A stretch of 63,818 nucleotides of DNA, taken from positions 1-63,818 of the IMG/VR virus record IMGVR_UViG_3300034069_001263, one strand, 5' to 3'. This stretch comes from a virus. The notes beneath the pieces were generated by a model that saw only the letters and a list, made by a program, of their open reading frames with translations, did no database searches and was not told the origin of the DNA. The position numbers and the translations under genes were made by a program. Positions 11,216 to 38,208 of the stretch are shown here, piece by piece (the first letter of the stretch is position 1; each line of letters starts with the position of its first letter).

Positions 11216-11216
11216 G

Positions 11217-11471: not shown

Positions 11472-11476
11472 AGCTG

Positions 11477-11491: not shown

Positions 11492-11504
11492 GAGTTTGGG
11501 CCCG

Positions 11505-12182
11505 TCAATGGGAGAGGATGATTGCTTCCAGCTTGTCGTGCAGATCTGCTAGGGTGCCGTCGTTCACTACGACGTGGTCGGGCCGCAGCCGGTCCACGCG
11601 CTCGCTATCGTGCACGCCCCACATCAAGCCGCAACAGCGATACAGGAGCGGTCCCAAACGCTTCCACTTGAACGCTCGGGGCTGCGCACCTGGCCGCTGG
11701 ATCAGGATGGTGAAGCCGCCCGCGTCCCGGATAGCGTCCTCCTCGTTGCGAAAACGCACGCTGTCGTTCATCACCGCGCCGCCGGCTCGGTTAGCCTGAA
11801 GCATCCACAGCTTTGCCCACAGATCCTGTCCGACCTGCTCGCGACCCCACTCGGTGCCGAGCGTGATCTGGAGGTCGCGTGACGTGCGCCCGATCTCCGG
11901 GATCACCCAGCCATCCTTGAGGTCGCCGGTGAGAATGCGCGCGATGTTGCGGTCACTGTAGCCGAAGTCTTTGAGGAGCGACGCCAGCATCCGACGGAGG
12001 GGTTCAGCGATGTGTTGGCGCCTGTAGCCATGTTCGGCTTCAATCAGCAGCGCCGCGGCGGTCTTGCCCGTGCCGGCGTAACCGCTCAGGCCGATCGGAG
12101 GCCGGCGCCGCTTGGAAGCGGTGAGCGTAATGCCCGATGCGCTGATCGGGATACCGGGCCCGAGGTCCGTGAGTATGCTCAT
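11505..12182 (-). CDS. Deoxynucleoside monophosphate kinase-like P-loop protein
   Basis: IGLSGYAGTGKTAAALLIEAEHGYRRQHIAEPLRRML is typical of the phage dNMP kinase family. Confidence 0.7.
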   Translation of the reverse strand: MSILTDLGPGIPISASGITLTASKRRRPPIGLSGYAGTGKTAAALLIEAEHGYRRQHIAEPLRRMLASLLKDFGYSDRNIARILTGDLKDGWVIPEIGRTSRDLQITLGTEWGREQVGQDLWAKLWMLQANRAGGAVMNDSVRFRNEEDAIRDAGGFTILIQRPGAQPRAFKWKRLGPLLYRCCGLMWGVHDSERVDRLRPDHVVVNDGTLADLHDKLEAIILSH

Positions 12183-12559
12183 CCTAGCAGCTCCTCAAAT
12201 TCATCGGTTTCAGACTCCACCGCCACCGCCCCGCGCCCTAGCAGTCGGTCCAGTCCCACCCGCGCCAACGGTATGTCCCAGCCAGCCGCATTGAACGCCG
12301 CTTCCAGTGCCTCTGCCACGCCCGACGCTTTCGCCTGCGCCACCAACCAATAATCCCAGCAGCGCTCGCCACGGGTCGCCGTGAAGGCCGCCGCCGTCCA
12401 CTGCCGACCGTCGCGTTCGACATGGTCGAAAAAGAGCTTCCCGTGCGCGCAAGCCCGGTGGAAATCCGCCCAGCCGTCGCGGTGTCGCGCCGCTTGGACT
12501 TCGGGTGTGTCCTTCCAGAGCGTTTCGGGCTTCGGAATGTAACGGGGATAGTCAGGCAT
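12179..12559 (-). CDS. Hypothetical protein with acidic-LLG tail
   Basis: 126 aa from ATG 12559 (overlaps the upstream stop); ends TDEFEELLG. Confidence 0.45.
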   Translation of the reverse strand: MPDYPRYIPKPETLWKDTPEVQAARHRDGWADFHRACAHGKLFFDHVERDGRQWTAAAFTATRGERCWDYWLVAQAKASGVAEALEAAFNAAGWDIPLARVGLDRLLGRGAVAVESETDEFEELLG

Positions 12560-12875
12560 CGGTGTTGGCCAGAATGGCAGAGAGTGACTTCTGCGCCGCA
12601 TCGTTTGCAGCAGCGATACGCCGCTTCATCTCACCTCGAATGCCGCCGATCTTGTTGACTAGCACCACAGCGTCAGCACGGTCAGCAAACGTCGCAACAA
12701 TCTGTGATTTGCGATACTGCCGAGTAAGACCGTTGCTATCAACTTTCACCAACGATTCTGTGGTGCTCATAACGAGAAGCACGTCCGTTACATGAACGTC
12801 GAGCGGATCGGTGTAGCTACCCCGAGCTATTAATGCCCATCGACCAGGCGTGAAGTCGTGCTGGGGCTGGATCAT
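12552..12875 (-). CDS. Hypothetical protein
   Basis: 107 aa; visibly lower GC than its neighbours; ATGA overlap with the upstream small ORF. Confidence 0.45.
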   Translation of the reverse strand: MIQPQHDFTPGRWALIARGSYTDPLDVHVTDVLLVMSTTESLVKVDSNGLTRQYRKSQIVATFADRADAVVLVNKIGGIRGEMKRRIAAANDAAQKSLSAILANTDA

Positions 12876-13039
12876 GATTCCGTCCCCCGCGGTTTTCCGG
12901 CCGCTTCCCAGGACGCGACCGCTTCCAGCCAGCGCTCACCTTTGTTGACCTCATCGCGGATGCGGTTGGTCTCATCCTCGATCTGCTCGTCGGTCATGCC
13001 GTCGAAATCGGCAGCAAAGTCCTTCCATGCCTCGTCCAT
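12872..13039 (-). CDS. Small acidic hypothetical protein (55 aa, below the ORF-track cutoff)
   Basis: Hand translation MDEAWKDFAADFDGMTDEQIEDETNRIRDEVNKGERWLEAVASWEAAGKPRGTES; coupled at both ends. Confidence 0.35.
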   Translation of the reverse strand: MDEAWKDFAADFDGMTDEQIEDETNRIRDEVNKGERWLEAVASWEAAGKPRGTES

Positions 13040-13731
13040 CACAAGATACTCCGCACCACATGCAGCCCTTCATCGAGCGACGTGCAGCGGAACCCCACAG
13101 CCTCGTTCACCATGCAGTGCTCATGGGGGTTGCCCGTCGCTTCTATGCAGGCGACGATCGGCGTGCGCTTCAGGTCAGCCCAGGCGATTTCCATCACCGT
13201 CCCGATCGAAACCTTGGCGGCGCCGAGCAGGTTGACCAGCAGCACGTCACACCGCGTCGCGTCGAAGCGGTCGCGGGTCATGATGCCGCGGGGCGAGGAC
13301 AGCGGCGACAGGTGGCCGTATTCTTCGCAGGTGGCGGAGAAGCCCTGGGTGTCGATGGCTTCGACTTTGGAACGATGCCAGTGAGCGGTGCCGCCCAGTT
13401 CGTCGCTGAACTCGACGTAGTAGGAAACGTTCGCTTCGCCGAAACCGACGACCTTGCCTTCGCCTCCGTCCGGGCCAGCCACCTGTACCCGCGTCCCAAC
13501 CGGATACGGGTGCTCCATCTTCTTCTCCGCGCCGCGCAGATACTCCTTCGCGCGCATCGGCGAGAGGCCGCGGATACCCGCTTCGGCGAGCGACGCGATG
13601 GCTTGGTCGCGCCAGTCCGTGGCACCTTTATAGCTGAGTCCGGCGATCGGGCCGGCGAGGTAAACGGTGGGGGCGGTACCCGGAACAACGTTGATCTTCG
13701 TGCCGGGTGGGAAGAACGCTGCATCAGCCAT
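13039..13731 (-). CDS. Nucleoside 2-deoxyribosyltransferase-like protein with inserted beta domain
   Basis: 230 aa from ATG 13731; VYLAGPIAGLSYKGATDWRD and C-terminal DVLLVNLLGAAKVSIGTVMEIAWA motifs; the Arg-rich upstream part of ORF 13039-14031 was trimmed. Confidence 0.55.
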   Translation of the reverse strand: MADAAFFPPGTKINVVPGTAPTVYLAGPIAGLSYKGATDWRDQAIASLAEAGIRGLSPMRAKEYLRGAEKKMEHPYPVGTRVQVAGPDGGEGKVVGFGEANVSYYVEFSDELGGTAHWHRSKVEAIDTQGFSATCEEYGHLSPLSSPRGIMTRDRFDATRCDVLLVNLLGAAKVSIGTVMEIAWADLKRTPIVACIEATGNPHEHCMVNEAVGFRCTSLDEGLHVVRSIL

Positions 13732-13934
13732 CACATCATCCTTTCGAAGAAGCCGCCCCACCAGAGCACCGACGCCTCGCCCACGGCGGAAAGCGCCACG
13801 AGTGCCGCGCCGATGCGCTGCTGCTTGGGGGTGAGCACGATCCACCGTCGCGCCGGCCGCGCCGCGCCGAGCAGGCCGCTGGCGATCACGAGGAACAGCC
13901 AGGCGATGACGGTGAGTTGGGGGAGGCGGGTCAT
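13731..13934 (-). CDS. Small membrane protein
   Basis: 67 aa from ATG 13934; TM LTVIAWLFLVIASGLLGAA. Confidence 0.4.
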   Translation of the reverse strand: MTRLPQLTVIAWLFLVIASGLLGAARPARRWIVLTPKQQRIGAALVALSAVGEASVLWWGGFFERMM

Positions 13935-14230
13935 GCCGCCACCGTCTGTGGGCGATAGGTGAAGGCGTCTCGTGGCACTTGGGAGTACACCAGCACCCAA
14001 CCCTGCAACCGGATGCACAGCATCCCGTCACGGCGCATCCGGCGCTCCGCCACCATGCCGCGGCGTTCCAGGTAGCGCAGATGCACGGTGCGCCAGGGGC
14101 GTGGCGGCTCGGGCTTGAGGCAGTCGTAGATCGGCGGCTCGATCCAGCCCGTGGCGGATGCCGACGCGATGGCGGCCAGCTCGCCTTCGGTGATCTCGTC
14201 GGGAAGCGGTTCCCAGCGGAGGCGGCTCAT
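13931..14230 (-). CDS. Hypothetical protein
   Basis: 99 aa; ATGA overlaps at both ends. Confidence 0.45.
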   Translation of the reverse strand: MSRLRWEPLPDEITEGELAAIASASATGWIEPPIYDCLKPEPPRPWRTVHLRYLERRGMVAERRMRRDGMLCIRLQGWVLVYSQVPRDAFTYRPQTVAA

Positions 14231-14373
14231 TGGATCAGCCCCGCGGCAAGCAGCAAGGCTGCAAAAGCGACGATGCAGGCACCAAACCCTTGCGGATAGT
14301 TGGCGTCCTCATTCGCGTAACCTGCCATGCACAATGCAACGGCAGAGAGGATTACAGCGACCGCGACGCGCAT
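14227..14373 (-). CDS. Small membrane protein (48 aa, below the ORF-track cutoff)
   Basis: Hand translation MRVAVAVILSAVALCMAGYANEDANYPQGFGACIVAFAALLLAAGLIQ. Confidence 0.35.
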   Translation of the reverse strand: MRVAVAVILSAVALCMAGYANEDANYPQGFGACIVAFAALLLAAGLIQ

Positions 14374-14735
14374 CACGCCGTCACCTTCTTGGCGCGGGGC
14401 TTCTTCATGCCCTCGACCACAGCCGCCACCTTCGGCTTCCGCACACGCTTCACCTTAGCCGCTACCGTCGCGACCTCCACCACCCGCTCCCGGCAGCGGT
14501 TGTGCGCGCCGACCGTCTTGCCCTCCGGCCAGATCGACTTCCGGTAAGCCGGATCGGAGTTTCGGGTGGGGACGAAGGTCAGACTGCGCTTCGTGTTCTG
14601 ACCCGTGCGGCTGCTGCGCCACGACTTGGCATCAACAGGAAAGAAACCGAGACGCGCACCACGTTCGCGCTCCTCGATCTTGAACGTCATCTTGGCGCGG
14701 TGCGCGACGTAGTGCTTGTGCTGCTGTGCGTCCAT
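14373..14735 (-). CDS. Basic hypothetical protein
   Basis: About 120 aa; Lys/Arg-rich C-terminus (KVKRVRKPKVAAVVEGMKKPRAKK); first gene after a palindrome copy. Confidence 0.45.
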   Translation of the reverse strand: MDAQQHKHYVAHRAKMTFKIEERERGARLGFFPVDAKSWRSSRTGQNTKRSLTFVPTRNSDPAYRKSIWPEGKTVGAHNRCRERVVEVATVAAKVKRVRKPKVAAVVEGMKKPRAKKVTA

Positions 14736-14744
14736 GTTGCTCAA

Positions 14745-14759
14745 TCCACAATATGTTGA
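14745..14759. repeat. Palindrome copy (minus orientation TCAACATATTGTGGA)
   Basis: Intergenic between MazG and gene 14373-14735; preceded by CAGTC. Confidence 0.8.
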
Positions 14760-14765
14760 GACTGT

Positions 14766-15521
14766 TCAGAAAGCTTTGCCACCAGCGGCGGCGCGAACCT
14801 CTGGCCGATGATCGGCCCTGGTGGCGTTGAACTGCCGCTTCTCGGCAATCGCGCCCGTCAGGTCGAAACTGAACGTGCCGGCGGAGAGGTCCACCAGGGC
14901 AAGCAGCGACGTGAGACTCTGGACACCAATCACGTTCGAGCCCTTGCGGAAGCCTTCCAGCGCCTTGGTGGTCTGGCGGTGCATCGCGCGACACCAGGCG
15001 TGCCAGTCGTCGGTGCCTGGCACTTCGAGCACGCCGCCGCGGTACTCGTCATCGGGATCGGACCAGCCCTTCCACTGGTAGAAGCCGAGCATGTCGAGTA
15101 CGCGGATCGCCACGTCGGCGAGTTCCACCTCGACCATGCGACGGTGCGGCAGCTTGTCATCCATCAGGCCGCCCTCGAAGCCTTCGTCGGCCTCGCTGAT
15201 CTCGCTGTGGACGAGCGCCAGCATCTCGCCGGTGTTGCGGTGAAGCGTGCGGCCTGTCTCGGGATCGGTCTTCCACCAGCCTACGGCGATGTTCCCTGCA
15301 TGAATCTCCGCAGCGAGCCCACCAATATCCAAGGGCAGGCCGGAAACGATGGTAGTGGTCACGGTTGGGTGCCTTTCGCCATAGGACCAGCGCGCGCCGC
15401 ACGAGCAGGCGATTTCGTCACCTTCGCGACGGTGGGCATGGTCGGTTTTGATTTCGGGACGGTTCATCGCTTGACGGGCGAAGCGGCGTCCCGAGTTGAA
15501 GGTCTGGTAGCCAGCGTTCAC
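14766..15521 (-). CDS. MazG-like nucleoside triphosphate pyrophosphohydrolase
   Basis: EMLALVHSEISEADEG and EVELADVAIRVLD helices are typical of MazG; N-terminal Cys/His segment; GTG start. Confidence 0.7.
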   Translation of the reverse strand: MNAGYQTFNSGRRFARQAMNRPEIKTDHAHRREGDEIACSCGARWSYGERHPTVTTTIVSGLPLDIGGLAAEIHAGNIAVGWWKTDPETGRTLHRNTGEMLALVHSEISEADEGFEGGLMDDKLPHRRMVEVELADVAIRVLDMLGFYQWKGWSDPDDEYRGGVLEVPGTDDWHAWCRAMHRQTTKALEGFRKGSNVIGVQSLTSLLALVDLSAGTFSFDLTGAIAEKRQFNATRADHRPEVRAAAGGKAF

Positions 15522-15523
15522 GC

Positions 15524-16168
15524 TCAGGCTCCCACGTCGGTGAAGTTGATATTCGGAAAGGCCGCGTCCACGTCGAACCAGCCATTGACAGACTTCTTCT
15601 CCTCGACGGGATCGACCTCCCAGCCGTAGAGTTGAACATGCTCCACTGCGCGATCCAGCTTCGCCATGACGGCGATGTTGAGGTCGGTCTGTCGATCAGC
15701 TTCGGCGATCCGTTGCGCCAGCGTGGCGTCGATCAGATTGTGGCCTTCACCCGTAAAGCCGAGCCTCCGTCGCATCTCCTTCATATCGCTCTTCGCGTTG
15801 GCGACCTGCTGGTTGGCGACCTCGCCTTTTGAGCGATCCTGCTGAAGCAGATTCACCATCTTCTTGATGATATCAATGCGCTTGAACGATGCCGACTGCG
15901 CGATGGCGCGGTCAAAGGCGCCGAGCACCAGATGCGCGACCTCTTCGAGTTCGGTGGGCGGGCGGACACTGCCGTCGTCGCCTGTCTCATCGTAGCGCTG
16001 GCGACGCTCCGGGTCGGACAGGATCACGTAGGCACGCTGCACCTGCTCGAAAGCGTCACGCTCTCCGCCCTTATCGGGATGGTGCTGCTGAACGCCGCGG
16101 CGGTGCGCCTGCTTGATTGCTTCGGGCGAGGCGTCACGCTCGACACCGAGGGCCTGGTAGGGGTCCAC
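15524..16168 (-). CDS. J-domain (DnaJ-like) protein
   Basis: DPYQALGVERDASPEAIKQAHRRGVQQHHPDKGG with the HPD tripeptide; the C-terminal 140 aa is unassigned. Confidence 0.85.
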   Translation of the reverse strand: MDPYQALGVERDASPEAIKQAHRRGVQQHHPDKGGERDAFEQVQRAYVILSDPERRQRYDETGDDGSVRPPTELEEVAHLVLGAFDRAIAQSASFKRIDIIKKMVNLLQQDRSKGEVANQQVANAKSDMKEMRRRLGFTGEGHNLIDATLAQRIAEADRQTDLNIAVMAKLDRAVEHVQLYGWEVDPVEEKKSVNGWFDVDAAFPNINFTDVGA

Positions 16169-20033: not shown

Positions 20034-20948
20034 ATGGCGGCCAAGCTGTCTCACCTTCAAGCGCTGCGTGCTGTCGCCGCTTCACTCGTAATCGTTGACC
20101 ATGCAACGGGCAGCATGGGGCTAGATCACCGACTGCCTGCCAGGACTGCTCCCGTTGCATGGCACATCGGATGGCTTGGCGTCGCGGTTTTCTTTGTCAT
20201 CAGCGGTTTCATCATGCGGCGCGCTGATCCGAGCCGATTTCTCTGGCATCGGTTTCGCCGCATCGCTCCGCTTTACTGGCTCGCCACGGCGGCGTCGATC
20301 CTGATTGGTGGCCGCCATTACCTCTTCAGCGAGATCCTGCGCTCGGTTCTGCTCATTCCCATGCAGCACGATGGCAGCCTGCAGTTCACGCCTATTCTGA
20401 CTCAGGGTTGGACGCTGAGCTTGGAGGTTCTGTTCTATCTGTTGTTCGCTGCCCTAGCGGCGCGGAGAGCGGCGATCACGGCTGCTCTGGTTGGGCTGGT
20501 GATGATAAGCGCGGTTCTGCCATCGGGTGGCCTTGCTGGCTTCTACACGCAGCCGATCATCATTTTCTTCGTCATCGGATTGTGGATCCACCGGGGTCGG
20601 GGTGGGGTCAGCGTCGCGATTGTGCTGCTCATCGTCGCAGCGGCTTATCCCGGTTGGCCCGCTGCACTGTTGACGGTGGCAGCGGTATGGTGCTGCACTG
20701 GTGAAAGCCGCGCTCCTAGGTGGCTGGAGCGGGCAGGCGATGCGTCCTACTCGACGTACCTATTCCACGGCTTTGCTCTAGCGGCGCTGCACAAGGCAGT
20801 AGGGTGGTTGCCGCCGGTCGCGTATGTCGGCGTGGCGGTGGTGGCCTGTAACTTGGTGGGGTGGGCGCTCTACCGGGTGGTGGAGCGCCCGTTGATTGTG
20901 GGCACGGAGCGCCTATCTGCTATCAGCCGGCGAGCCAGACTGGCTTGA
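20034..20948 (+). CDS. Acyltransferase family 3 membrane protein (O-antigen/polysaccharide O-acetylase type)
   Basis: LQALRAVAASLVIVDH N-terminus, about 8 TM helices, FFVISGFIM motif. Confidence 0.8.
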   Translation: MAAKLSHLQALRAVAASLVIVDHATGSMGLDHRLPARTAPVAWHIGWLGVAVFFVISGFIMRRADPSRFLWHRFRRIAPLYWLATAASILIGGRHYLFSEILRSVLLIPMQHDGSLQFTPILTQGWTLSLEVLFYLLFAALAARRAAITAALVGLVMISAVLPSGGLAGFYTQPIIIFFVIGLWIHRGRGGVSVAIVLLIVAAAYPGWPAALLTVAAVWCCTGESRAPRWLERAGDASYSTYLFHGFALAALHKAVGWLPPVAYVGVAVVACNLVGWALYRVVERPLIVGTERLSAISRRARLA

Positions 20949-21789
20949 GCGCCGCGAAGGCGTTGGCCGCCAGCACGTCGTGCCCGCCGGCCCGGCCGGC
21001 CGCATCGGCCCGCGTCCGGGTGCAGTTCAGGTGCTGGTTGTTCAGGATCGGCGCCCAGCAGTTCGAGTTGGCCGCTTCCGCCCCGCTACTGATGAGCGCC
21101 CGCATGGCGGCGAGGTTGTCGACATAGACGGCATCGGCGCCGGCCGTGACCAGGTCGGCCACCGCGCCCTGCTGCGCGACCCGGCAGGAGGCGTAGTAGC
21201 TTTCCTCGGTCGTGAGCGTGTCACCGCCCTGGCCGGTGGCCCAGTTCTTCATGTGCTGGCCATGCACCAGCATCCGCTTGCACCCGGCGGCCAGCAGCAG
21301 CTTGCCCATCTGGGCGAGGTTCCTGCGGGTGTCGATCGCGACGGCCGCGCCGCTGGCGGGCGCGCTGGCGAGCGCCGTGGCGGCGGTCAGCGTGAGGGTG
21401 TCGCCCGACACCGACAGCACCTGGGCGCTGGCGCCGGCGACCTGGATCCAGGAGCCCGCCCCGTAGAGCGTGCCCAGGCCGGCCTGGAGCGGCACGCTGG
21501 TGGTGGTGGCCGTGCCGTTCACCGTTGTGGCGCCGTTGCCGTCGTTCGCACCGCCATAGAGGATGCCGATGTTCGGCACCTCGTACTGGGTCATGGCGCC
21601 GAAGCGCGCGACCATCTGGGCGGTGGTGTTGCCGCCGATGCCGTAGCCCCGCATGATGAAGCCGATGGCCGGGTACTTGGCCCGGAGCAGCGCCACCAGA
21701 CGGTAGAGGTGCGTGTCGGCCGGCGTGTTGCCGTAGCCGTATGGCGCGGTGAGGCTGTCGCCCATGCCGGCGAGCGCGATGGTCGTCAT
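20923..21789 (-). CDS. SGNH/GDSL-family hydrolase (esterase)
   Basis: GDSLT (block I), GIGGNT (block II), GGANDG (block III); ATG 21789. Confidence 0.7.
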   Translation of the reverse strand: MTTIALAGMGDSLTAPYGYGNTPADTHLYRLVALLRAKYPAIGFIMRGYGIGGNTTAQMVARFGAMTQYEVPNIGILYGGANDGNGATTVNGTATTTSVPLQAGLGTLYGAGSWIQVAGASAQVLSVSGDTLTLTAATALASAPASGAAVAIDTRRNLAQMGKLLLAAGCKRMLVHGQHMKNWATGQGGDTLTTEESYYASCRVAQQGAVADLVTAGADAVYVDNLAAMRALISSGAEAANSNCWAPILNNQHLNCTRTRADAAGRAGGHDVLAANAFAALKPVWLAG

Positions 21790-21790
21790 G

Positions 21791-22708
21791 TCAGTTCTGC
21801 CCCACAAGGGTGAGAAGGAGGGCGTTTGCCGTGTCGCATCGGACCAGCATCGTGCCGCACAACGGGCCCGGCAGCGGGAACCAGCCGCTTGCCCCGGCCG
21901 CGATCGTGATGGTCGCGAAAGGGAGCGCTTGGCCCAAGTTGCTGGTCAGCGTCATGAGGATCGAAGCGCCACCAGCGGGGTTCGTGTTGCGGTAGTAGAA
22001 GCCCAGCATGGACTTGAGCGCCACGCCGCCCGGGGGAATGATCGTGTCCGCATTGGCCGTCGCCAGGGTGAACTGGCTGTTGGCACCGCTGCCGTTGTAG
22101 AAGGAGATGCCGCGGGGCTGCGGAACGTAGCCGGCGTTCGCATCGGCCAGATAGCCGTGCAGCAGCATCGTCCTGGTCACGGCTGCGTCGTTGGGCACGG
22201 CGATCAGCACGTCGTGCGGCCCCGGGCCGAAGTTGGTCCCCAGGATGATGTTCCGGGCGTGCCCGAAGGCGAGCGCCGGCCCACGGAGGTTCTGGCTCTC
22301 CGGCACGACCTCCGCCGCCCATGGCACCTCGATCGGCTGGCCGTCGACGGATACGCCGAACGGACAACCGTTGTTGTAGCCGCCATACAGCCCGATCCGC
22401 AGGCCGATGACGTTGCCGTTGATGCTCCGCCGGATCGCGACATCGCCCGCATAGGTGGTGGATGCGACCGAGTTGATGGCGATGCCGGCGGCGCTGCCAT
22501 CCTCGTTGTCGAGCGCAAGGTAGGTCAAGGAAGCGTTCGAGCTGCCGGACACGCTGATGACGTCCTCGCCGCGCTGCACCGGCAGCATCACGAGGCGGGG
22601 CTGGGTGATCTTGGCGATGACTGCCGCGAGCTGGGCCTGCTGGCCGGCATTGAGCCCCGCGGCGAGTTGCGCCGCCTGCGCGGCGGCGTCCTGCGCGATG
22701 ATGTCCAT
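21791..22708 (-). CDS. Hypothetical protein (Gly/Ala-rich beta protein)
   Basis: 305 aa; tightly packed between the secreted protein and the SGNH hydrolase. Confidence 0.5.
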   Translation of the reverse strand: MDIIAQDAAAQAAQLAAGLNAGQQAQLAAVIAKITQPRLVMLPVQRGEDVISVSGSSNASLTYLALDNEDGSAAGIAINSVASTTYAGDVAIRRSINGNVIGLRIGLYGGYNNGCPFGVSVDGQPIEVPWAAEVVPESQNLRGPALAFGHARNIILGTNFGPGPHDVLIAVPNDAAVTRTMLLHGYLADANAGYVPQPRGISFYNGSGANSQFTLATANADTIIPPGGVALKSMLGFYYRNTNPAGGASILMTLTSNLGQALPFATITIAAGASGWFPLPGPLCGTMLVRCDTANALLLTLVGQN

Positions 22709-23433: not shown

Positions 23434-23652
23434 ATGAAGCGCTGCCAATGTGGAAAGATGATCCATCCCAGCCAGGGCGCGGCACACGCCGCTCGGAAGC
23501 GGCTCAAAAACGTCGCGCTTGACGTTTACCGGTGCGAGCACGGCAACTGGCACCTTGGCCGGACACGCGATCCCCTCCGCTGCGCATGGCGGATTGACGA
23601 TATCTTGAAGCGGCATGAGGCGGCGCTACGGGCGCGGCTGGCGGCACGGTGA
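23434..23652 (+). CDS. Small zinc-ribbon-like protein (paralogue of 45248-45421)
   Basis: 72 aa; CQCGK...YRCEHGNWHLGR pattern. Confidence 0.45.
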   Translation: MKRCQCGKMIHPSQGAAHAARKRLKNVALDVYRCEHGNWHLGRTRDPLRCAWRIDDILKRHEAALRARLAAR

Positions 23653-24008
23653 TAGTTCTGGTAACCGGTGGGCGCGACTATACGGACGCGGAATCGCTGG
23701 AGTCCGCGCTTTCGACACTCAGCCCTTCCATCATCATGCATGGGGCGGCCCGCGGCGCCGATCGGATCGCCGACGCATGGGCGCGCCGCCACAGGGTTAC
23801 GGTCAAAGCCTTTCCGGCCAACTGGGCGGAGGAGGGCCCCTCAGCCGGCCCAAGGCGCAACGCCGCCATGCTGGCAGCCTCGCAACCCGACATCGTGCTG
23901 GCGGCGCCTGGCGGGCGTGGGACGGCTGACATGGTGCGACGCGCTACCAGGGCAGGCGTGGAGGTGCGGCACGTTACTCCCACCGGCTTGGACGCGCTGC
24001 TAGGCTAG
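23649..24008 (+). CDS. DUF2493 / SLOG-family Rossmann protein
   Basis: IVLVTGGRDYTD...IMHGAARGADRIADAWA...APGGRGTADMV; ends GLDALLG. Confidence 0.6.
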   Translation: MIVLVTGGRDYTDAESLESALSTLSPSIIMHGAARGADRIADAWARRHRVTVKAFPANWAEEGPSAGPRRNAAMLAASQPDIVLAAPGGRGTADMVRRATRAGVEVRHVTPTGLDALLG

Positions 24009-25927: not shown

Positions 25928-25998
25928 CCGATTCCCTCTTTGAAAGTCACACTCCGCATAACGCACACTCATTCGCATGTGTCCACATAATGTTGACA
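25928..25998 (-). promoter_or_regulatory. Control region copy A: palindrome plus two GAGTGTG iterons plus SD
   Basis: The minus strand reads TGTCAACATTATGTGGACACATGCGAATGAGTGTGCGTTATGCGGAGTGTGACTTTCAAAGAGGGAATCGG-ATG; near-identical to 27777-27852. Confidence 0.7.
25982..25996. repeat. Palindrome copy TCCACATAATGTTGA
   Basis: Part of control region copy A. Confidence 0.8.
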
Positions 25999-27776: not shown

Positions 27777-27852
27777 CGTCCCGAGTCCCTCTCTGAAAGT
27801 CACACTCCGCATAACGCACACTCAACGCGGTGTGTCCACACAATGTTGACAG
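27777..27852 (-). promoter_or_regulatory. Control region copy B: palindrome plus two GAGTGTG iterons plus SD
   Basis: The minus strand reads CTGTCAACATTGTGTGGACACACCGCGTTGAGTGTGCGTTATGCGGAGTGTGACTTTCAGAGAGGGACTCGGGACG-ATG. Confidence 0.7.
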
Positions 27853-28078
27853 AGAGGGCGAGAAATAACGCACACTCACGGCGGGGCGACGGCGCCGAAA
27901 GTCACACTCAACGCTCGGCGCTCGGCGCTCGGCGCGAGACAACATCGAAAGTCACACTCAGCGGACGGGGTGGGCTGCGAGGAGCAAGCTTCGGTGCGAC
28001 GGCGCTGCAGCGCTGAAAGTCACACTCATAACGCACACTCATGCGGGCAAAGTCACACTCATAACTCACACTCATTGT
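27795..28078. repeat. Iteron family A field: GAAAGTCACACTC and ATAACGCACACTCA direct repeats
   Basis: GAAAGTCACACTC at 27795, 27897, 27947, 28015, 28048 (CAAAG variant), with outliers at 25942 and 28566; (A)TAACGCACACTCA at 27811, 27865, 28028, 28061; inverted GAGTGTGCG at 28184; GCTCGGC x3 tandem at 27914-27934. Confidence 0.85.
27835..27849. repeat. Palindrome copy TCCACACAATGTTGA
   Basis: Part of control region copy B. Confidence 0.8.
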
Positions 28079-28228
28079 ACTGGTGTGTTGTGACAGTGCT
28101 ACAGCTAAGTCATTGGCAACGGGCCCCAATCCGGCTCTGGACACGTCGGGGGCGGCGCTGAGCCGTCCTCCTCGCAACATTCTGAGTGTGCGCTAAGGCC
28201 AAATGAGATCTGTCAGGAGCGATTTGCT

Positions 28229-28560
28229 CTATGTGACAGGGTGACAGGCTCATATGGACCCAGTCACACCCCAGTCACAGCATATTTGCCGGTTTTCCGG
28301 GCAGGATGGCATCTATGTGACAGGGTGACAGCAATTTCTTAGAAGTTTGTCGTCTGAAGGGGGATATTCGATTAGCCGTACGGCAATGTTGTGGAAGTGC
28401 TGCTAGGCCAAATGAAAATACCGCCTGTGGGGAAACTTATAGGAAGGCCGAAAAAGCTGTCACCCTGTCACATTGAGTAGTAAGCTACTGTAATTATTCA
28501 TGAAAAGCTGTGACAGGGGGTGTGACAGGGGGTGTGACAGGGTCGGACCCTGTCACATAG
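28229..28560. repeat. Iteron family B field: TGTGACAGGG direct and inverted repeats
   Basis: Identical 19-mers CTATGTGACAGGGTGACAG at 28229 and 28313; inverted copy at 28457-28473; TGTGACAGGGGG x2 plus TGTGACAGGG at 28509-28542; 12+12 palindrome at 28533-28557; CAGTCACA x2 at 28261-28279. Confidence 0.85.
28332..28508. other. AT-enriched spacer inside iteron field (candidate DNA-unwinding element of a replication origin)
   Basis: Runs such as aatttcttagaagtttg, aaatgaaaatacc and taagctactgtaattattcatgaaaag in an otherwise GC-rich genome; flanked by family B repeats in opposite orientation. Confidence 0.45.
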
Positions 28561-28589
28561 AGCACGAAAGTCACACTCACCTGCAGTTA

Positions 28590-29318
28590 TCAGAGTCCGC
28601 CCTGACTTAGCGCAACCATGCGATCCATCCCGAATGCGATCTCGAAAACGAGACACGGCTTGAAGCCTGGCACCTCCGGGAAGTCGGTCCGGCGCGACGT
28701 GGAAGCGACCTCGCGCCAATCGCCGTTGTCCAGCCTACACTCGATGTCGGTCGTCTCCGTGGCGTAGGGCGGCAGGCGGTCCGAAGGGATGAGCCGCGTC
28801 TCCAAGCCGGTCAGGCGCTGAACGACCGGCACGAGAGCCTCGCGGATCGGTATCGCGATCTCAGCCTTGGTATCGGCCGCGTGGATGAGCTGCAGTTCGA
28901 GCTGGGTGAAGGCGTTGAGCCGCAGCTTCGCCGCGGTGGCGCCGTCCGTCGTCTCGCGCCGGTGGGAGTAGCCCATCTGCCAGACGCAAAGCGGAGGCTT
29001 CAGCTTGGTGGTGCGCATGATCTGGACTGCCGTCGCGTAGGTGCCGTCCGTCGTCTCTGCTCGCAGCGCGTAAGGATTGGTGCCGCCGGGCGGATCGGTC
29101 AGCATGAACACGTCCGAACGGTCGTAGGCTGCCGACATGCGCGCGAGCGGCATCATCGGTGGTGTCTCGACCTCCTCAAACGCCCACATCTGGTTGATGT
29201 CAGCCAGGGAGACCTGCACCGTGTCGAGGATAGTGTCGCGGATGCGGCGGCGGAGATGGAGCTCGCGCTGGCGCCAGAAGCGCAGGCCGGCAAGGTCGTC
29301 GTAGAGGGCGTAAGACAT
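28590..29318 (-). CDS. Class II aminoacyl-tRNA synthetase-like catalytic-core paralogue (HisRS/HisZ-like), no anticodon-binding domain
   Basis: 242 aa. Motif 1-like FEEVETPPMMPL. Substrate loop ALRAETTDGT. Motif 2-like WQMGYSHRRETTDGATAAKLRLNAFTQLELQ. Motif 3-like FEIAFGMDRMVAL. Assignment by eye only. Confidence 0.6.
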   Translation of the reverse strand: MSYALYDDLAGLRFWRQRELHLRRRIRDTILDTVQVSLADINQMWAFEEVETPPMMPLARMSAAYDRSDVFMLTDPPGGTNPYALRAETTDGTYATAVQIMRTTKLKPPLCVWQMGYSHRRETTDGATAAKLRLNAFTQLELQLIHAADTKAEIAIPIREALVPVVQRLTGLETRLIPSDRLPPYATETTDIECRLDNGDWREVASTSRRTDFPEVPGFKPCLVFEIAFGMDRMVALSQGGL

Positions 29319-29342: not shown

Positions 29343-31874
29343 TCAACCCGCCAAGCCCTGGCGTTGCAGATACCCTTCGTCGCCAAACAGGGAATAGAAT
29401 CGCTGCTGCCCGTGCCGCGGGAAGCGCTTCCGACCGCTGCCTATGGTGCAGAGGTGCCAATCCGGAACGAGCGCCATTGCCCGCCCAAGGCTTTGCGAAG
29501 CCACCTGGTTGTACGTTTTCACGTCGTTGCCGAGGCAGTCGGTCCATACCTCGATGAGGCAGGTCTCAGTACGCAGCCTCGGCTTGCCGTCCTCAGTCAG
29601 ATCGTCGTCGATGCTGCCGGTGTTGATCGGCTGAGACAGCCACTCGGCAATACGGCCAGCGGTGGCATCGTCGGCGCTCTCGACCCTCCGGGACTCTTGG
29701 AGCCGTGCGGCTGTGACTAGGGCTTCGCGCTCGGATAGGTAGAGCGGCAGGATGCCGGAGGGCTGTGTCGCGCGCATCGCCCGGTACAGCACAAGGGCTT
29801 CGGCCCATAGCTGGTTGAGGTTCAGTTCGAGCCGCGGAATGTCGATCTCGCCGTCGAGTTGGCACGGCATCGGCCACCAGCGGCGCGCGCCCGTGTCATC
29901 CTTGAGGTAGCGCTTGTCATTGGTCGAACCCAAGAAGATGCACTGCCGCGGGAACACGCCCGCCCGCCGCGCATAGGCCAGCCGGGCCTTGTCATGGGTA
30001 CGCGACATGAATGCCTTGATCGTCTGAACCTCGCCGCGCTGGAAGCCGGAAAGTTCAGGTATTTCCATGATCCAGGCACCTTGCATCGCCTCGATCATTT
30101 GCTTTTGATCGTGAAAGTCGCCGTCGAGTTCGGCAAACCAGCCGTGACCGAGCGTCTTGATGAAGGTGGACTTGCGCTTACCTTGCAGACCTTCAAGAAT
30201 GACGGCGAAGTCGAACTTGTGGCCGGGCTCGTAGATCCTGGTAACTGCCGCGATCAGCATGAGGCGCGACACGGATCGGCTATAGCTGTCGTTCGGGGCG
30301 CCGACGTAGTCGTGGAACAACGTCTCGACCCTGGCAGTGCCGTCCCATGTGTGGCTTTCGAGGTATTCGCGCACGGGATGGAAGGAGTGGTCGGTCGCGG
30401 CGAGTACGATCGAGGCCTTGAGATCCCGGTCGGTGACTTTCACACCGTAGCCACCCTGCGTCTTGGGTGCCTCCATGATCGAACGAACAGCATAGTCGCG
30501 ATCCTCCGACCATAGGTCTCCGTTCAGTTCGTCCTTCACCTGCCACACGCGGCCGGCGAGCTGGCGCGTTTGCTTTGCGGGATTGCTGCGAAGGTTCGGC
30601 TTGCTGCCAGGCTGCGTGCGCTGGACAGGTTCGAGCGTGAACTCGTTAAGCTGGGGCAGGCCTGCGAGACGTAGGTCGTTGCGGACCATCAACTCGACGT
30701 TATGCAGCGTCGGCTTGATTGCCCCTTCATCATTCCGGTCAAGCAGGCTCAGCCAGCCCCCCTTGGCGGAGATGGTGTCGTCATCGTCGTCGTCCGCGCC
30801 GCCGAGGAGATCGATGTCGGACTTTGGGGGCGGGACTTCGGCGGGGGCGTCGGCGCCGAGCAGGTCGTCGAAATCAGCCGGGGCCTCGTCATCAGCATCT
30901 TCGAACGCATCAACGAACGCCGCCGTTCGCGCGTCCTGGGCCCACTCTACCACCGTTGCCATGGTAACAGGCTTGCCGCGGTAGCGACCAAACGACTTCC
31001 ACTTCACGCGCCGCATCTCGCGCACCTGCTTGTCGCCGGTGAACTTGGTCGAGCGCTTGGTGTGTTTCAGCCAGAGATCGAAGCCTTCGTCGCTGCCCCC
31101 GAATTGGTGGTGCAGCGCCTGGCCGATACGCAGCCAGTCGTTGTAGTGCAGCTCGCTGATGTTGATCGCGCTCAGCGTTCGTTCGAGTTGGTCCCCCTTG
31201 AAGGTCAGAGGTTCGCGCGTTTCGAATTCGTACGTGGCGTGTTCAACCAATGACAGGCGTTCAATCGCCGAAGAGGATACAAACGGCCCAACGCCCAACT
31301 CCAACAGCGTGAAGTCGAGCTCGCGAAGCCAGCGATAAGGCTTACCGCTTTCGGGGTGGATGCTAGGCGGAACGACGACCTGCTTACTGGTGCCGTAGAG
31401 TTCCACTTCCCAATCGTACGACCATCCCTCTTTCCCGTCCTTGACGCGCTTATGCTTGCCGGGGCTGGTTGCCAGCAGCTTGGACCGGAAGGGTTTGTCG
31501 AGAATGAGGTAAAGATGCCGAGACTCGCCACCTGAGCCCGATTGGACGCACGGCAGTTCGGAGATGTTCACGTCTGGGAACAAGGCGCGGACCGCGTCCC
31601 ATGCCTCGTCTTTAAGGTCGTCAATCCTAATGTCGATGTCGAGGACATGGAGAAAGCCACCCGCGACTTGCGAGGGCTCACCTAGTCGAACGCCAACATT
31701 ATAGTTCGACTGATGTGATAAGCTAAGCTGCTCATGCGAAAGCACCGCGCTTTCGGACCAACCTGCTATGACAGGTCGCTTGTCCCGTGCTTTGAGCCAA
31801 TGAAGCGCGAAACCGGCAGCACGCAACGGCTCGACGGCGGCAAGCATGGCAGTGTCGAAGTCGTTGCGGCTCAT
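29343..31874 (-). CDS. Bifunctional primase-polymerase (Prim-Pol) / PriCT-2 / VirE-type P-loop helicase
   Basis: N-terminal GFALHWLKARDKRPVIAGW; PriCT-2-like YNDWLRIGQALHHQFGGSDEGFDLW; Walker A LEGLQGKRKST; acidic linker with two DxxLLG peptides. Confidence 0.85.
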   Translation of the reverse strand: MSRNDFDTAMLAAVEPLRAAGFALHWLKARDKRPVIAGWSESAVLSHEQLSLSHQSNYNVGVRLGEPSQVAGGFLHVLDIDIRIDDLKDEAWDAVRALFPDVNISELPCVQSGSGGESRHLYLILDKPFRSKLLATSPGKHKRVKDGKEGWSYDWEVELYGTSKQVVVPPSIHPESGKPYRWLRELDFTLLELGVGPFVSSSAIERLSLVEHATYEFETREPLTFKGDQLERTLSAINISELHYNDWLRIGQALHHQFGGSDEGFDLWLKHTKRSTKFTGDKQVREMRRVKWKSFGRYRGKPVTMATVVEWAQDARTAAFVDAFEDADDEAPADFDDLLGADAPAEVPPPKSDIDLLGGADDDDDDTISAKGGWLSLLDRNDEGAIKPTLHNVELMVRNDLRLAGLPQLNEFTLEPVQRTQPGSKPNLRSNPAKQTRQLAGRVWQVKDELNGDLWSEDRDYAVRSIMEAPKTQGGYGVKVTDRDLKASIVLAATDHSFHPVREYLESHTWDGTARVETLFHDYVGAPNDSYSRSVSRLMLIAAVTRIYEPGHKFDFAVILEGLQGKRKSTFIKTLGHGWFAELDGDFHDQKQMIEAMQGAWIMEIPELSGFQRGEVQTIKAFMSRTHDKARLAYARRAGVFPRQCIFLGSTNDKRYLKDDTGARRWWPMPCQLDGEIDIPRLELNLNQLWAEALVLYRAMRATQPSGILPLYLSEREALVTAARLQESRRVESADDATAGRIAEWLSQPINTGSIDDDLTEDGKPRLRTETCLIEVWTDCLGNDVKTYNQVASQSLGRAMALVPDWHLCTIGSGRKRFPRHGQQRFYSLFGDEGYLQRQGLAG

Positions 31875-31916: not shown

Positions 31917-32216
31917 TCAGGCAAGGAAAGGCACGAAGTCGGAGAACTCCACAGGCTGAGTGCCGTTTGCGTGCAGTACAGCGAGGTTGCGAGTGGTACG
32001 GGCAAGCTCGACGAGGCGCTTGGCGTTGCGGGTGTTCACCGAGCCGGCCCGCAGCCAGCGATAGATGATTTCGCGGCTGATCTTGAGTTCCTTGGCCACC
32101 GCAGCGACGCAAAGACGCGGCGAGTCAGTCGTGGAGTCGATCAAAAAGCCCGGCAGCGCCGCCACGAGAGCCTTGTAAAGCGGTCCTTGCGCCCACTCTG
32201 CCGCTTCGCTCGCCAT
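31917..32216 (-). CDS. Cro-like HTH regulator
   Basis: 99 aa; HTH VAAVAKELKISREIIYRWLRAG; first leftward gene at the divergent switch region. Confidence 0.6.
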   Translation of the reverse strand: MASEAAEWAQGPLYKALVAALPGFLIDSTTDSPRLCVAAVAKELKISREIIYRWLRAGSVNTRNAKRLVELARTTRNLAVLHANGTQPVEFSDFVPFLA

Positions 32217-35677: not shown

Positions 35678-35914
35678 ATGGCTGACAACGACACCGTGAA
35701 CAGCACGTCCGACGATCGGACGGTGAACAACGTCATGCGGCACGCCTATCGCGTGCTGGGCGATGCCGAGAAGGCCACCATGCAGAAGATCAAGGACGAC
35801 GGCCTCTCGCTGCACGACTTCCTGTCGTCGCTCGGCAACAGCCGCGAACTCTCCGTCGCCAAGACGAAGATCGAAGAGGCCGTCATGTGGGCGGTCAAGC
35901 ACATCACCGCCTGA
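35678..35914 (+). CDS. Conserved phage hypothetical protein
   Basis: 78 aa; C-terminal KTKIEEAVMWAVKHIT helix; shares the initiation context GGAGAGCACCAACATGGCTGA with the next gene. Confidence 0.5.
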   Translation: MADNDTVNSTSDDRTVNNVMRHAYRVLGDAEKATMQKIKDDGLSLHDFLSSLGNSRELSVAKTKIEEAVMWAVKHITA

Positions 35915-36617: not shown

Positions 36618-36654
36618 ACAGGCGAGCATCCCAGAGCACGGCTTGCTCGCCTGT
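36618..36654 (+). terminator. Stem-loop after the SSB-like gene (weak terminator candidate)
   Basis: ACAGGCGAGC/GCTCGCCTGT with a 17-nt loop, followed by TCGGCTT. Confidence 0.35.
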
Positions 36655-36762
36655 TCGGCTTGGCGCTGGCCTACGACGCGCGCGGGCTGGAGCGAGTTCA
36701 GTGGCTCGCTCCATCCATGCTGCCGGCGATACCGGGGCCGTGGCGCGTGTATCGGTTTTGAT

Positions 36763-38208
36763 ATGCTGATGTTCGGAAGCGTCTGTTCTGGCATCGAAGC
36801 GGCGTCGGTCGCCTGGGAGCGCCTGGGCTGGACGGCCTGCTGGTTCGCCGAGGTGGACCGTGCTGCCAGCGAGGTGCTGGCCTACCGCTTCCCTAACGTC
36901 CCCAACCACGGGGACATGATGTTGCTCGCTGCGATGGTGCGGAGCCGGACTATCCCCGCGCCGGACGTGCTGGTGGGCGGAACGCCGTGCCAAGCTTTCT
37001 CGGTAGCGGGGCTGCGCCTCGGGTTGGCTGACGAGCGCGGCCAATTGACGCTCGCCTACGTAGATCTTGTCAACGCCATCGACGAGGTGAGGGCGGCTGA
37101 CTGCCTGCCGCCCTGCATCGCCATCTGGGAGAATGTGCCGGGTGTCCTCTCATCCAAGGATAACGCCTTCGGTTGCTTCCTTGCTGGCCTTGCCGGGGAA
37201 GATTGCGAACTTCGACCGGCAGGGAAGCGGTGGACGAACGCTGGTTGTGTGCTTGGACCCGAAAGGGCAATCGCATGGCGGATCATCAACGCCCAATATG
37301 TCGGACTGGCCCAACGACGCCGTCGTGTGTTCGTTGTCGCAGGTGCTGGTGCGGGGTTTGATCCCGCCGCAATACTTCTTGAGTTCGACGGCCTGCGCCG
37401 GGATTCTGCGCCGCGCCGAGGCTCGGGGGAAGGCACTACCCACCCCGTTGCTCCGAGCCTTACAAGCAGTGGCCGGGGAGTTGAGCGCGTCGGAGGGCCC
37501 CGTGGCCAAGATCCTGTCGTGGCCGTCAGCGGAATGGATCGCGGCCTTCCTGGCGTAGCCTATGGCCGCAACAACTGCTCCGGCCCCATCGACGCCGCGG
37601 CGGCGCTGAACGCCCACGGCGGTCCGTGCGGTCGCCTGGACTTCGAGACGGAGACGTTCATCGTCCAGCAGCCAATACCGTTCGACACGACCCAGATCAC
37701 CTCGCCGGGTAACTACTCTGTCCCGCGCGCTGGCGATCCGTGCCATCCTTTGGCAGCGGGCGCCCATCCGCCTGCGATCGTCGTTCATGGTTCGCAGTCG
37801 CCGATCGTTAACTTCGACCTAGCGGATGCGCTAGGTCGAAACAGCGGTCAGGAGAACGCCGTCGCGTTCCAGGCGAGCCAATCCGGCGTCCGCATTAGCC
37901 ACACCGCGGGCACCCTGGATGCGAACTATGGCCCGCGGCGGCACAACGGCGTCCTCGCCGGCATGGCAGTGCGCCGTCTGATGCCGGTCGAGTGCGAGCG
38001 GTTGCAGGGCTTCCCCGATGGCTGGACGTTGGTCCCGACCGGCCCGAAGCGCAAGCCCGCGGCGGACGGCCCCCGCTACAAGCAGCTCGGCAACAGCATG
38101 GCGGTGAACGTGATGCGCTGGATAGGTCAGCGCGTGGACGCCTGGGTGCGGCTGAACTGGCCCAGCCTGGGACACAGCTACTTTGACTATTCAGATCTCC
38201 TGGGATGA
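36763..38208 (+). CDS. DNA (cytosine-5)-methyltransferase
   Basis: Motif IV GGTPCQAFS, motif VI IWENVPG, motif X QLGNSMAVNV; ATG 36763 (MLMFGSVCSGIE); ends DYSDLLG. Confidence 0.85.
   Translation: MLMFGSVCSGIEAASVAWERLGWTACWFAEVDRAASEVLAYRFPNVPNHGDMMLLAAMVRSRTIPAPDVLVGGTPCQAFSVAGLRLGLADERGQLTLAYVDLVNAIDEVRAADCLPPCIAIWENVPGVLSSKDNAFGCFLAGLAGEDCELRPAGKRWTNAGCVLGPERAIAWRIINAQYVGLAQRRRRVFVVAGAGAGFDPAAILLEFDGLRRDSAPRRGSGEGTTHPVAPSLTSSGRGVERVGGPRGQDPVVAVSGMDRGLPGVAYGRNNCSGPIDAAAALNAHGGPCGRLDFETETFIVQQPIPFDTTQITSPGNYSVPRAGDPCHPLAAGAHPPAIVVHGSQSPIVNFDLADALGRNSGQENAVAFQASQSGVRISHTAGTLDANYGPRRHNGVLAGMAVRRLMPVECERLQGFPDGWTLVPTGPKRKPAADGPRYKQLGNSMAVNVMRWIGQRVDAWVRLNWPSLGHSYFDYSDLLG

Follow-up and report, generated by a model that had tools for sequence, protein, structure and literature searches.

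What does a lone aminoacyl-tRNA synthetase core do in a phage, and does its place in a replication operon say anything about its role? This question is raised by a 63,818-nucleotide stretch of viral DNA (IMG/VR record IMGVR_UViG_3300034069_001263, positions 1 to 63,818; hereafter the window, to which all coordinates refer unless another locus is named). A first-pass annotation, made from the letters alone, had noticed an open reading frame (ORF) at 28590–29318 that seemed to carry the signature motifs of class II aminoacyl-tRNA synthetases (aaRS). A genuine gene occupies this position, on the minus strand; it begins with ATG, codes for 242 amino acids and terminates in TGA followed by TAA, whereas the plus-strand reading of this interval is interrupted by many stops. 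The GC content at third codon positions (GC3) of the coding frame is 0.84, and the product is acidic with a computed isoelectric point (pI) of 5.5. We find that this protein is a free-standing class IIa core derived from dimeric (α2) glycyl-tRNA synthetase (GlyRS), and we refer to the gene as mini-GlyRS-like. Judged by its sequences, the protein belongs to a large, phage-specific family of free-standing GlyRS cores. The first-pass annotation knew of no described function for such a gene, and our literature searches agree: they returned no characterisation of the family, which is also absent from the 2022 review of aaRS paralogues.

The ancestry of the protein was traced by sequence, profile and fold searches. 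A single-sequence phmmer search of the PDB retrieved GlyRS at E = 3e-7, and a family profile built from 43 homologues again placed GlyRS first (E = 6e-14), with the best seryl-tRNA synthetase (SerRS) at E ~ 1e-5. Glycine--tRNA ligase was the top NCBIfam match (E = 2e-13). The sole Pfam hit, tRNA-synt_2b (E = 1.8e-5), stayed below the gathering score (25.3 vs 29.3 bits), and PHROGs and PADLOC provided no match or model for the protein. An AlphaFold2 model (predicted local distance difference test score 90.2, predicted template modelling score 0.87) orders its secondary-structure elements as in a class II core with the antiparallel β-sheet fold. When this model was compared with the PDB by Foldseek, the top 50 hits were all class II aaRS catalytic domains (E 1e-13 to 3e-11), led by the GlyRS of Mycobacterium, Nanoarchaeum and Thermus (E ~ 1e-13, template modelling score 0.62–0.73). 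These searches, which had been proposed at first pass as checks, confirm the class II aaRS fold. They also uphold the reading of motifs 1–3 in the correct order, each of which was located as a peptide. The protein is a catalytic domain only, starting at the first strand before the motif-1 helix and ending five residues after the motif-3 helix. The anticodon-binding domain is indeed missing, as had been noted before: no HGTP_anticodon domain was found in the protein, nor in the Pfam tables of neighbouring genes at the examined loci.

The type of synthetase had been judged differently at first pass, where motif 2 and a nearby loop were likened to histidyl-tRNA synthetase (HisRS). Every sequence, profile and fold search ranks α2 GlyRS first instead. 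Membership in the HisRS/HisZ group was considered and rejected, since PF13393 gave no hit at E ≤ 1, hisZ reached only E = 0.018 at 14 bits, and the GGRYD box is absent. The LRAETTDGT loop that had been called HisRS-like is present in the protein, but its counterpart is LRPETAQGIF of GlyRS. The following elements make up the catalytic core.

29145–29180, minus strand: motif 1, FEEVETPPMMPL, residues 47–58, with an invariant P53; the long motif-1 helix (residues 17–41) precedes it
29037–29066, minus strand: LRAETTDGTY loop, residues 85–94, matching the GlyRS loop
28890–28982, minus strand: motif 2 with its loop, WQMGYSHRRETTDGATAAKLRLNAFTQLELQ, residues 113–143, in which R120 and E122 form the fRxE element
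28680–28784, minus strand: GlyRS-like central-sheet signatures SDRLPPYATETTDIE (residues 179–193) and STSRRTDF (residues 206–213)
28608–28646, minus strand: motif 3, FEIAFGMDRMVAL, residues 225–237, carrying the GlyRS signature IEPSFGxxR with R233 as the motif-3 arginine

Alignment by HMMER pairs QMGYSHRRE with QIGKSFRNE of GlyRS, and AFTQLELQ with EFEQMEME. In motif 2, F137 is the adenine-stacking phenylalanine, and Q139 and E141 match the F-E-Q-M-E of GlyRS. The segment SDRLPPYATETTDIE corresponds to 'dkLsHYs.rTvDIE' of GlyRS and aligns with DKLSHYSDRTVDIE, while STSRRTDF matches 'vaNRTDFD' (SRRTDF aligned to NRTDF) and contributes R210 and D212, which are invariant across the whole family. 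The C-terminal 54 residues alone gave no match in a phmmer search of the PDB. Motif 3 was compared instead with the retrieved sequence of human GlyRS, where the segment 516-VVPNVIEPSFGLGR-529 served as reference and FEIAFGMDR of the phage protein matches IEPSFGLGR.

Conservation was assessed in two alignments, one of 43 homologues at 52–84% identity (A1, 53% mean column identity) and one of 31 members reaching down to 21% identity (A2). In A1, 47 columns are invariant, including P53, R120, E122, F137, G230 and R233 as well as three glutamates, E88, E141 and E226. Within the LRAETTDGTY loop, R86, E88, T89, T90, G92 and Y94 are invariant in A1, and E88 is also invariant in A2. More generally, each glutamate of the triad and each catalytic arginine is either invariant in A2 or conserved to 90% or more. 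Residues 125–131 of the motif-2 loop are flexible in the model yet conserved in sequence. According to HMMER and the human sequence, E88, E141 and E226 align with E245, E296 and E522 of human GlyRS. In dimeric GlyRS, glycine is recognised by a trio of conserved acidic residues, and a single serine keeps bulkier amino acids out (PMC7373986). Inspection of the ATP- and amino-acid-binding residues, another check suggested at first pass, thus shows that both the ATP arginines and the glycine-binding glutamate triad have been kept.

This conservation of the motifs, the ATP arginines and the glutamate triad points to an active enzyme rather than to a dead scaffold like POLG2, the GlyRS-related accessory subunit of mitochondrial DNA polymerase gamma. 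The pattern is as expected from purifying selection on the formation of a small-amino-acid adenylate, and it makes glycine the leading candidate substrate. Some doubt comes from the position of the gatekeeper serine, S524 of human GlyRS, where the phage protein has A228. Alanine is invariant here in the clade of the window, and in the wider family the position is mostly Ala, with Ser in the rest and occasionally Gly or Thr.

Next to α2 GlyRS (M. tuberculosis 8T5N, T. thermophilus 1ATI, human 2PME), the phage protein shows the same catalytic fold with motifs 1–3, the signatures LRPET, QxGKSFRxE, FxQxE, (L)xHY..T.DIE, RTDF and E-x-S/A-F-G-x-x-R, and the same three glycine-binding glutamates. With 242 residues against 442–693 it is about half as long or less. 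It lacks the anticodon-binding, insertion and WHEP domains, has Ala in place of the gatekeeper Ser, and carries a motif-2 loop that is two residues longer with a conserved DGATAAK of its own. Its whole-protein scores lie under the GlyRS family cut-offs (PRK04173, 49.8 vs 312 bits; TIGR00389, 27 vs 243 bits). Because of the 49.8 against 312 bits, the missing anticodon-binding domain and the lost gatekeeper serine, we do not count the protein as a member of the GlyRS family proper. The likely alphaproteobacterial hosts use the unrelated α2β2 GlyRS (PMC7373986).

In total, 236 homologues of the protein were found. A profile search of 1.84 billion representative proteins returned 200 clusters (50% identity clusters) at E ≤ 1e-10. 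Among the best 150 representatives, almost all measure 210–286 amino acids and a few measure 306–352 with a split match; fused domains or full-length GlyRS did not occur among them. These sizes, together with the absence of fusions and of full-length GlyRS, separate the family cleanly from canonical synthetases. All inspected contexts are phage, mostly jumbo or huge phages. Named members come from jumbo Caulobacter phages (CcrSC, CcrBL9, C1 and others), Brevundimonas jumbo phages, Sinorhizobium phage Phosso, Xanthomonas phage XbC2 and two uncultured phages of 635 kb, where they are annotated as 'hypothetical protein', 'aminoacyl-tRNA synthetase', 'serine-tRNA synthetase' or 'RNA synthetase class II'. 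The JGI pipeline attaches the label 'glycyl-tRNA synthetase' to many members, including the exact 242-residue product. Since pipelines already use this label, assigning the fold is in itself no novelty. The new element seems to be that a minimal architecture is combined with an intact active site, cassette-like mobility and a linkage to tRNA genes and suppressor tRNAs. When one genome per bacterial or archaeal species was scanned with peptide patterns, at least five loci emerged, the Reyranella locus described below being one of them; this is a lower bound given by patterns that are specific to the clade of the window.

A side result of the structure searches concerns other phages. In BFVD the model matched several small phage proteins of 185–222 residues at E 1e-5 to 1e-17, for example K7QJG2 of Escherichia phage phAPEC8. 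Because these matches cover the core fold, further reduced class II-like proteins may exist in unrelated phages.

Which molecule could accept an amino acid activated by such a core? We collected 85 distinct loci and mapped their tRNA genes. A tRNA gene lies within 1 kb of the mini-GlyRS-like gene at 29 of 79 distinct loci, as compared to 5 of 72 at an offset of −4.5 kb and 12 of 79 at +4.5 kb, so that tRNA genes are densest around the mini-GlyRS-like gene. Some 16 of the loci form part of tRNA arrays. A tRNA-Gly gene stands 16–20 nt upstream at two loci (L082 and L094) and 193 nt upstream at a third (L076). Within 600 nt, tRNA-Gly is the commonest identity (9/54, against a background of 19/173); this excess is slight and therefore gives no evidence of specificity. 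At nine loci of one sub-clade, that of the cultivated phage Phosso included, the sole tRNA within 6 kb is an amber-suppressor tRNA(CUA), whose gene precedes the mini-GlyRS-like gene by 52–1874 nt in the same orientation. One more locus, the tenth, belongs to another cluster and has its tRNA(CUA) 1.7 kb downstream on the opposite strand. The suppressor sub-clade shares an island with genes for an ATP-grasp protein (R2K), CysRS, tRNA(CUA), the mini-GlyRS-like protein, a phosphatase-like protein and the peptidyl-tRNA hydrolase (PTH) PTH2; in Phosso an RNA ligase is also nearby. In locus coordinates, the island is found as follows.

L017 (Sinorhizobium phage Phosso), 2941–12458: suppressor island
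L071, 2119–8613: suppressor island
L048, L049, L052, L053, L063, L066 and L072: further loci with the suppressor island

In the clade of the window, the jumbo-phage members keep neighbours related to tRNA of several kinds: RNA ligase, Thg1, PTH2 and CysRS (L011), CysRS and ArfA (L006), Thg1 (L004), YqeY (L013) and an RnlA-like ligase in phage CcrSC, with L015 also among such loci. As a separate observation, Xanthomonas phage XbC2 (L018) encodes an 88-nt tRNA-Ser(GCU) at 7830–7917 of its locus, ending 20 nt before the start of the homologue, whose annotation there is 'RNA synthetase class II'.

A pairing with an amber suppressor would have a precedent. Among class II synthetases, PylRS alone is known to charge an amber suppressor without anticodon reading. 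By architecture its core of about 270 residues (PylSc, and the PylRS of ~275 residues that has no N-terminal domain) is the nearest working analogue of the phage protein, as a complete synthetase that does not read the anticodon. PylRS is paired with its amber suppressor tRNA; in the phage family one sub-clade adjoins a tRNA(CUA), which would be a candidate partner, and the window has no tRNA. The family profile aligns with PylRS chains end to end (residues 44–238, E ~ 2e-3), a similarity that reflects the shared class II fold only. The deep hydrophobic pocket and the extra tRNA-binding helices of PylRS set it apart from the phage family.

The neighbourhoods of twelve relatives, at 84, 82, 81, 80, 75, 72, 69, 68, 67, 61, 58 and 55% identity, show how the gene travels. 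Its closest relatives (80–84% amino acid identity; L101–L107) are found in small prophages or temperate phages whose gene contexts are unrelated, with accessory genes around them. One such context is a phage with an S24 repressor, DUF1376 and toxin-antitoxin-like genes; others are contigs that carry a transposase and a TonB_C-like gene. One of these relatives, at 82% identity, lies on scaffold32 of Reyranella sp. CPCC 100927 (L106, 8001–8726), and the next-closest relatives are found on contigs of up to 587 kb. This distribution suggests an alphaproteobacterial host range that includes Reyranella and Rhizobiaceae. A tblastn search of all window ORFs against the loci of the relatives, those at 72–84% identity included, recovered only the gene itself. 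For the relatives at 80–84% identity, nucleotide homology starts and stops within a few bases of the ORF ends, and no flanking homology that would mark a larger mobile unit extends beyond the ORF. These sequence comparisons point to single-gene transfer among the 80–84% relatives. Considering the unrelated contexts, the lack of any other shared gene and the homology that ends at the ORF, we regard the gene as an autonomous cassette. Such single-gene spread among unrelated phages suggests a self-sufficient benefit, as do the PTH2, Thg1, RNA ligase and CysRS neighbours in the jumbo-phage islands.

Taken at about even odds (a probability of roughly 0.5), our preferred explanation is that the protein would activate glycine, or another small amino acid, and transfer it to tRNA independently of the anticodon. 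We infer glycine as the substrate, tRNA as the acceptor and the biological role from the comparisons above. In the mechanism that we envisage, ATP would be held by the motif-2 and motif-3 arginines and glycine, or a similarly small amino acid, by the three-glutamate pocket of GlyRS type. An aminoacyl-adenylate would then form, and the amino acid would be passed to the 3' (CCA) end of a tRNA recognised by its acceptor arm alone, since the protein has no anticodon-binding domain. In a temperate phage without tRNA genes, the acceptor would be a host tRNA.

The probable benefit would be that tRNA(Gly) is kept charged during infection, for example when host toxins or shut-off hit tRNA(Gly) or the host GlyRS; protection of translation against host systems that target tRNA(Gly) is thus a plausible gain. 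Several such systems are documented. The GNAT toxins AtaT2 and TacT acetylate Gly-tRNA(Gly) (PMC7470980, PMC9241777), and the toxSAS FaRel2, linked to anti-phage immunity, pyrophosphorylates the CCA end of tRNA(Gly) (PMC11559606). In this context PTH is a known detoxifier of acetylated aminoacyl-tRNA (PMC7470980, PMC9241777, PMC11559606), and PTH is present in the same phage islands as the mini-GlyRS-like gene. Moreover, Al-Shayeb et al. reported a huge-phage CRISPR spacer against the host GlyRS gene (PMC7162821). The tRNA(Gly)-specific toxins, the PTH genes in the islands and the spacer together make a tRNA(Gly)-charging role plausible.

A number of points weigh against this proposal. With Ala (A228) at the position of the gatekeeper Ser, the phage protein may use an amino acid other than glycine. 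It has neither the insertion domains nor the anticodon-binding domain by which canonical GlyRS holds its tRNA. Unlike tRNA-Gly, which has U73, the suppressor tRNAs have G73 (A73 in L035), and their acceptor stems vary. Essentially one syntenic sub-clade accounts for the suppressor linkage, which therefore counts as one independent event or two. In the 6 kb that flank the suppressor-linked relatives on each side there is no sign of TAG recoding (coding coverage 0.91–0.96 under the standard code) and no TAG avoidance: TAG makes up 17 of 145 stops there, as compared to 25 of 165 in relatives that have no suppressor close by. Among the loci of the clade to which the window belongs (≥45% identity), only 3 of 21 have a tRNA within 1 kb. 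Most of the tRNA linkage is contributed by members that are 31–44% identical and have a different motif-2 loop. The window itself has no tRNA gene according to ARAGORN and no Rfam family match; searches for tRNA or tRNA-like RNA in the window and its repeat-rich stretch (described below) with ARAGORN and Rfam (gathering thresholds and E ≤ 1) returned nothing relevant. Finally, the counter-defence role is pure conjecture.

If tRNA is charged, the protein would be the most reduced class II synthetase found in nature, a core of 242 residues without anticodon reading. This would bear on the minimum protein needed for an aaRS, and compact orthogonal pairs would be possible because some relatives adjoin amber-suppressor tRNAs. 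A far more ambitious version of the proposal, which we hold to be unlikely as a whole, is that these anticodon-blind mini-synthetases are the smallest class II aaRS known, forming a self-contained pair with tRNA(CUA) in one huge-phage lineage and, in cassette form, recharging host tRNA(Gly) against toxins by which Gly-tRNA(Gly) is acetylated or the CCA end of tRNA(Gly) is blocked. If true, phages would possess a novel kind of counter-defence, and genetic-code engineering would gain an orthogonal pair that is ready for use.

The strongest competing explanation starts from the class II cores that have left canonical translation. HisZ, EpmA/PoxA and AsnA, all named in the first-pass annotation, are likewise stand-alone catalytic-domain paralogues; EpmA/PoxA acts on EF-P and AsnA on ammonia. 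In contrast to the phage cassettes, they are cellular housekeeping proteins with HisRS, LysRS and AspRS as parents, and only HisZ matches the phage protein (E = 0.018), with EpmA/PoxA and AsnA giving no match. By analogy, the phage protein could be a tRNA-independent ligase that forms glycyl-adenylate, or another aminoacyl-adenylate, from which the amino acid is handed on to the side chain of a protein, a carrier protein, a small molecule or a nucleotide; in a variant, it might make a dinucleotide polyphosphate such as Ap4A instead. The retention of catalytic and amino-acid-binding residues next to the loss of all tRNA-holding domains fits such an enzyme, as does the absence of tRNA genes nearby in the window and in most of its clade. 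Single-gene mobility would suit an enzyme with a ubiquitous host target. Furthermore, the characterised free-standing class II cores other than PylRS all act without tRNA aminoacylation, and the amino acid:[carrier protein] ligases, truncated class IIa SerRS homologues of Bradyrhizobium and Agrobacterium, include some that activate glycine (PMC9437257). Like the phage protein, these ligases are truncated class IIa cores without a tRNA-binding domain and occur in Alphaproteobacteria. However, they derive from SerRS and are encoded next to a carrier-protein gene, whereas the phage family derives from GlyRS and has no such gene near the examined members. Indeed, the neighbourhoods with Pfam tables hold neither a carrier-protein (PP-binding) gene nor any other recurrent partner, and none of the best 150 representatives is fused to another domain. 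A ligase would also leave the tRNA-gene peak and the tRNA-metabolism neighbours unexplained. We thus consider the ligase possible but doubtful. The amino acid ligase that the first-pass annotation had listed is kept as a rival, as is its suggestion of a link to tRNA-targeting defence; the tRNA-linked explanation now has genomic support. If glycine were ligated to a target other than tRNA, the protein would be a new phage-specific modification enzyme. As to known families, the phage protein is a member neither of HisZ, EpmA or AsnA, nor of the amino acid:[carrier protein] ligases or POLG2.

Improbable, in our estimate, is a non-catalytic binder or decoy in the manner of HisZ, which would bind glycine, ATP, the acceptor end of tRNA, a host GlyRS subunit or a tRNA-targeting toxin. 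HisZ does show that a class II core can serve as an allosteric subunit, some members of the phage family depart from the consensus at motif positions (P0255 has neither the FRxE nor the DR residues), and the huge-phage spacer against the host GlyRS gene indicates that phages interfere with this node (PMC7162821). Nevertheless, the ATP-phosphate arginines, the adenine-stacking Phe and the glutamate triad are kept across ~200 clusters, down to ~30% identity, and from this conserved catalytic set we expect catalysis rather than mere binding.

The location of the gene had inspired a further idea at first pass, namely that the protein is a replication accessory or origin-binding factor. Three features are relevant here.

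29343–31874, minus strand: primase-helicase gene, 843 amino acids, Prim-Pol, PriCT_2 and VapE-like (Pfam and PHROGs), ending 24 nt upstream of the mini-GlyRS-like gene
31917–32216: small helix-turn-helix (HTH) gene that precedes the primase-helicase gene in transcription order
27780–28589 (to ~28590), no strand: repeat-rich, GC-poor non-coding stretch, ~800 nt without a convincing ORF

The 24-nt spacing to the primase-helicase gene, reported at first pass, was found again, with both genes on the same strand and no terminator-like site found between them. The mini-GlyRS-like gene is probably co-transcribed with the primase-helicase gene, though the primase is no conserved partner. The iteron field that had been described as adjoining the gene likewise exists, as a repeat-rich stretch that begins right after the stop codon and has a GC content of 46–50% as compared to ~65% in its flanks. 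Two repeat families fill it, with eight units of the GAGTGTGACTTTC type and several of the CTGTCACCCTGTCACA / CTGTCACACCCC kind, some direct and some inverted. It may act as an origin or represent promoter/operator regions that have been duplicated. A 71-nt block of it (27781–27851) recurs at 25928–25998 with 87% identity, and each copy stands just upstream of a leftward ORF.

A replication factor reusing the GlyRS-like fold would resemble POLG2, which has this fold, keeps a C-terminal anticodon-binding-like domain and has lost its catalytic residues. The GlyRS-like ancestry is shared, and so would be the association with a replisome that POLG2 has; the phage protein is otherwise the reverse, with no C-terminal domain and a strictly conserved active site. 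POLG2 chains are missing both from the 25 sequence matches in the PDB and from the first 50 hits of Foldseek. The acidic pI also speaks against a replication factor. Primase adjacency is unique to the window: no primase stands next to the gene in any other locus examined, including the relatives at 72–84% identity, and the DNA homology of the 80–84% relatives stops at the ORF ends. With an adjacency that is not conserved, a gene that moves alone and an active site that is kept, a replication role has become very improbable, in spite of the closeness to the primase-helicase gene and the repeats. The place at the end of the HTH-primase unit looks like the spot where the cassette landed, incidental to replication.

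That the motifs are a coincidence, and the ORF either no class II aaRS homologue or no real gene, for which only the single-sequence Pfam score below the gathering threshold (25.3 vs 29.3 bits) could speak, is refuted by the profile and structure searches, the 236 homologues and the GC3 of 0.84, and deserves practically no credence.

From its gene content, as predicted by Pfam and PHROGs searches, the window as a whole is a temperate tailed phage. Tail genes are located at both ends, and the window further encodes an extracytoplasmic function (ECF)-like sigma factor, a DUF2800 nuclease, an Enc34-type single-stranded DNA-binding protein (SSB), a C5 methylase and a helicase. A megablast search with the region from 20 to 40 kb against 50,697 phage records gave no match. 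Three genes can be placed as follows.

8156–9301: integrase
7076–7864: S24 repressor-like gene
36643–38208: C5 methylase, 521 amino acids, apart from the block of modification-type genes at 9732–16168

A possible functional link of the mini-GlyRS-like gene with the C5 DNA methylase near its huge-phage homologues was dropped, as the window methylase is not detectably related to that of the huge phages at E ≤ 1e-5. The block at 9732–16168 (minus strand) runs leftward and consists of nucleotide- and DNA-modification-type genes: an MT-A70 methylase, a weak dNMP-kinase-like gene, a MazG-like pyrophosphatase, a DnaJ-domain protein and a protein with two nucleoside 2-deoxyribosyltransferase-like halves.

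A gene in the replication module, located between those for the DUF2800 nuclease and the Enc34-type SSB (35678–35914, plus strand), encodes a 78-residue Acb2/Tad1-hairpin protein (Pfam E = 1.8e-17), which is a candidate sponge for cyclic-nucleotide immune signals. At 20034–21807, a gene for an Acyl_transf_3 acyltransferase (plus strand, E = 1e-24) is convergent with, and slightly overlaps, a weak GDSL-lipase-like gene on the minus strand; this looks like a lysogenic-conversion pair for surface O-acetylation. The window also encodes a 119-residue SLOG/YspA-like (YAcAr) protein at 23649–24008 (plus strand, Pfam E = 2.8e-18), a type of domain that binds nucleotides or their derivatives.

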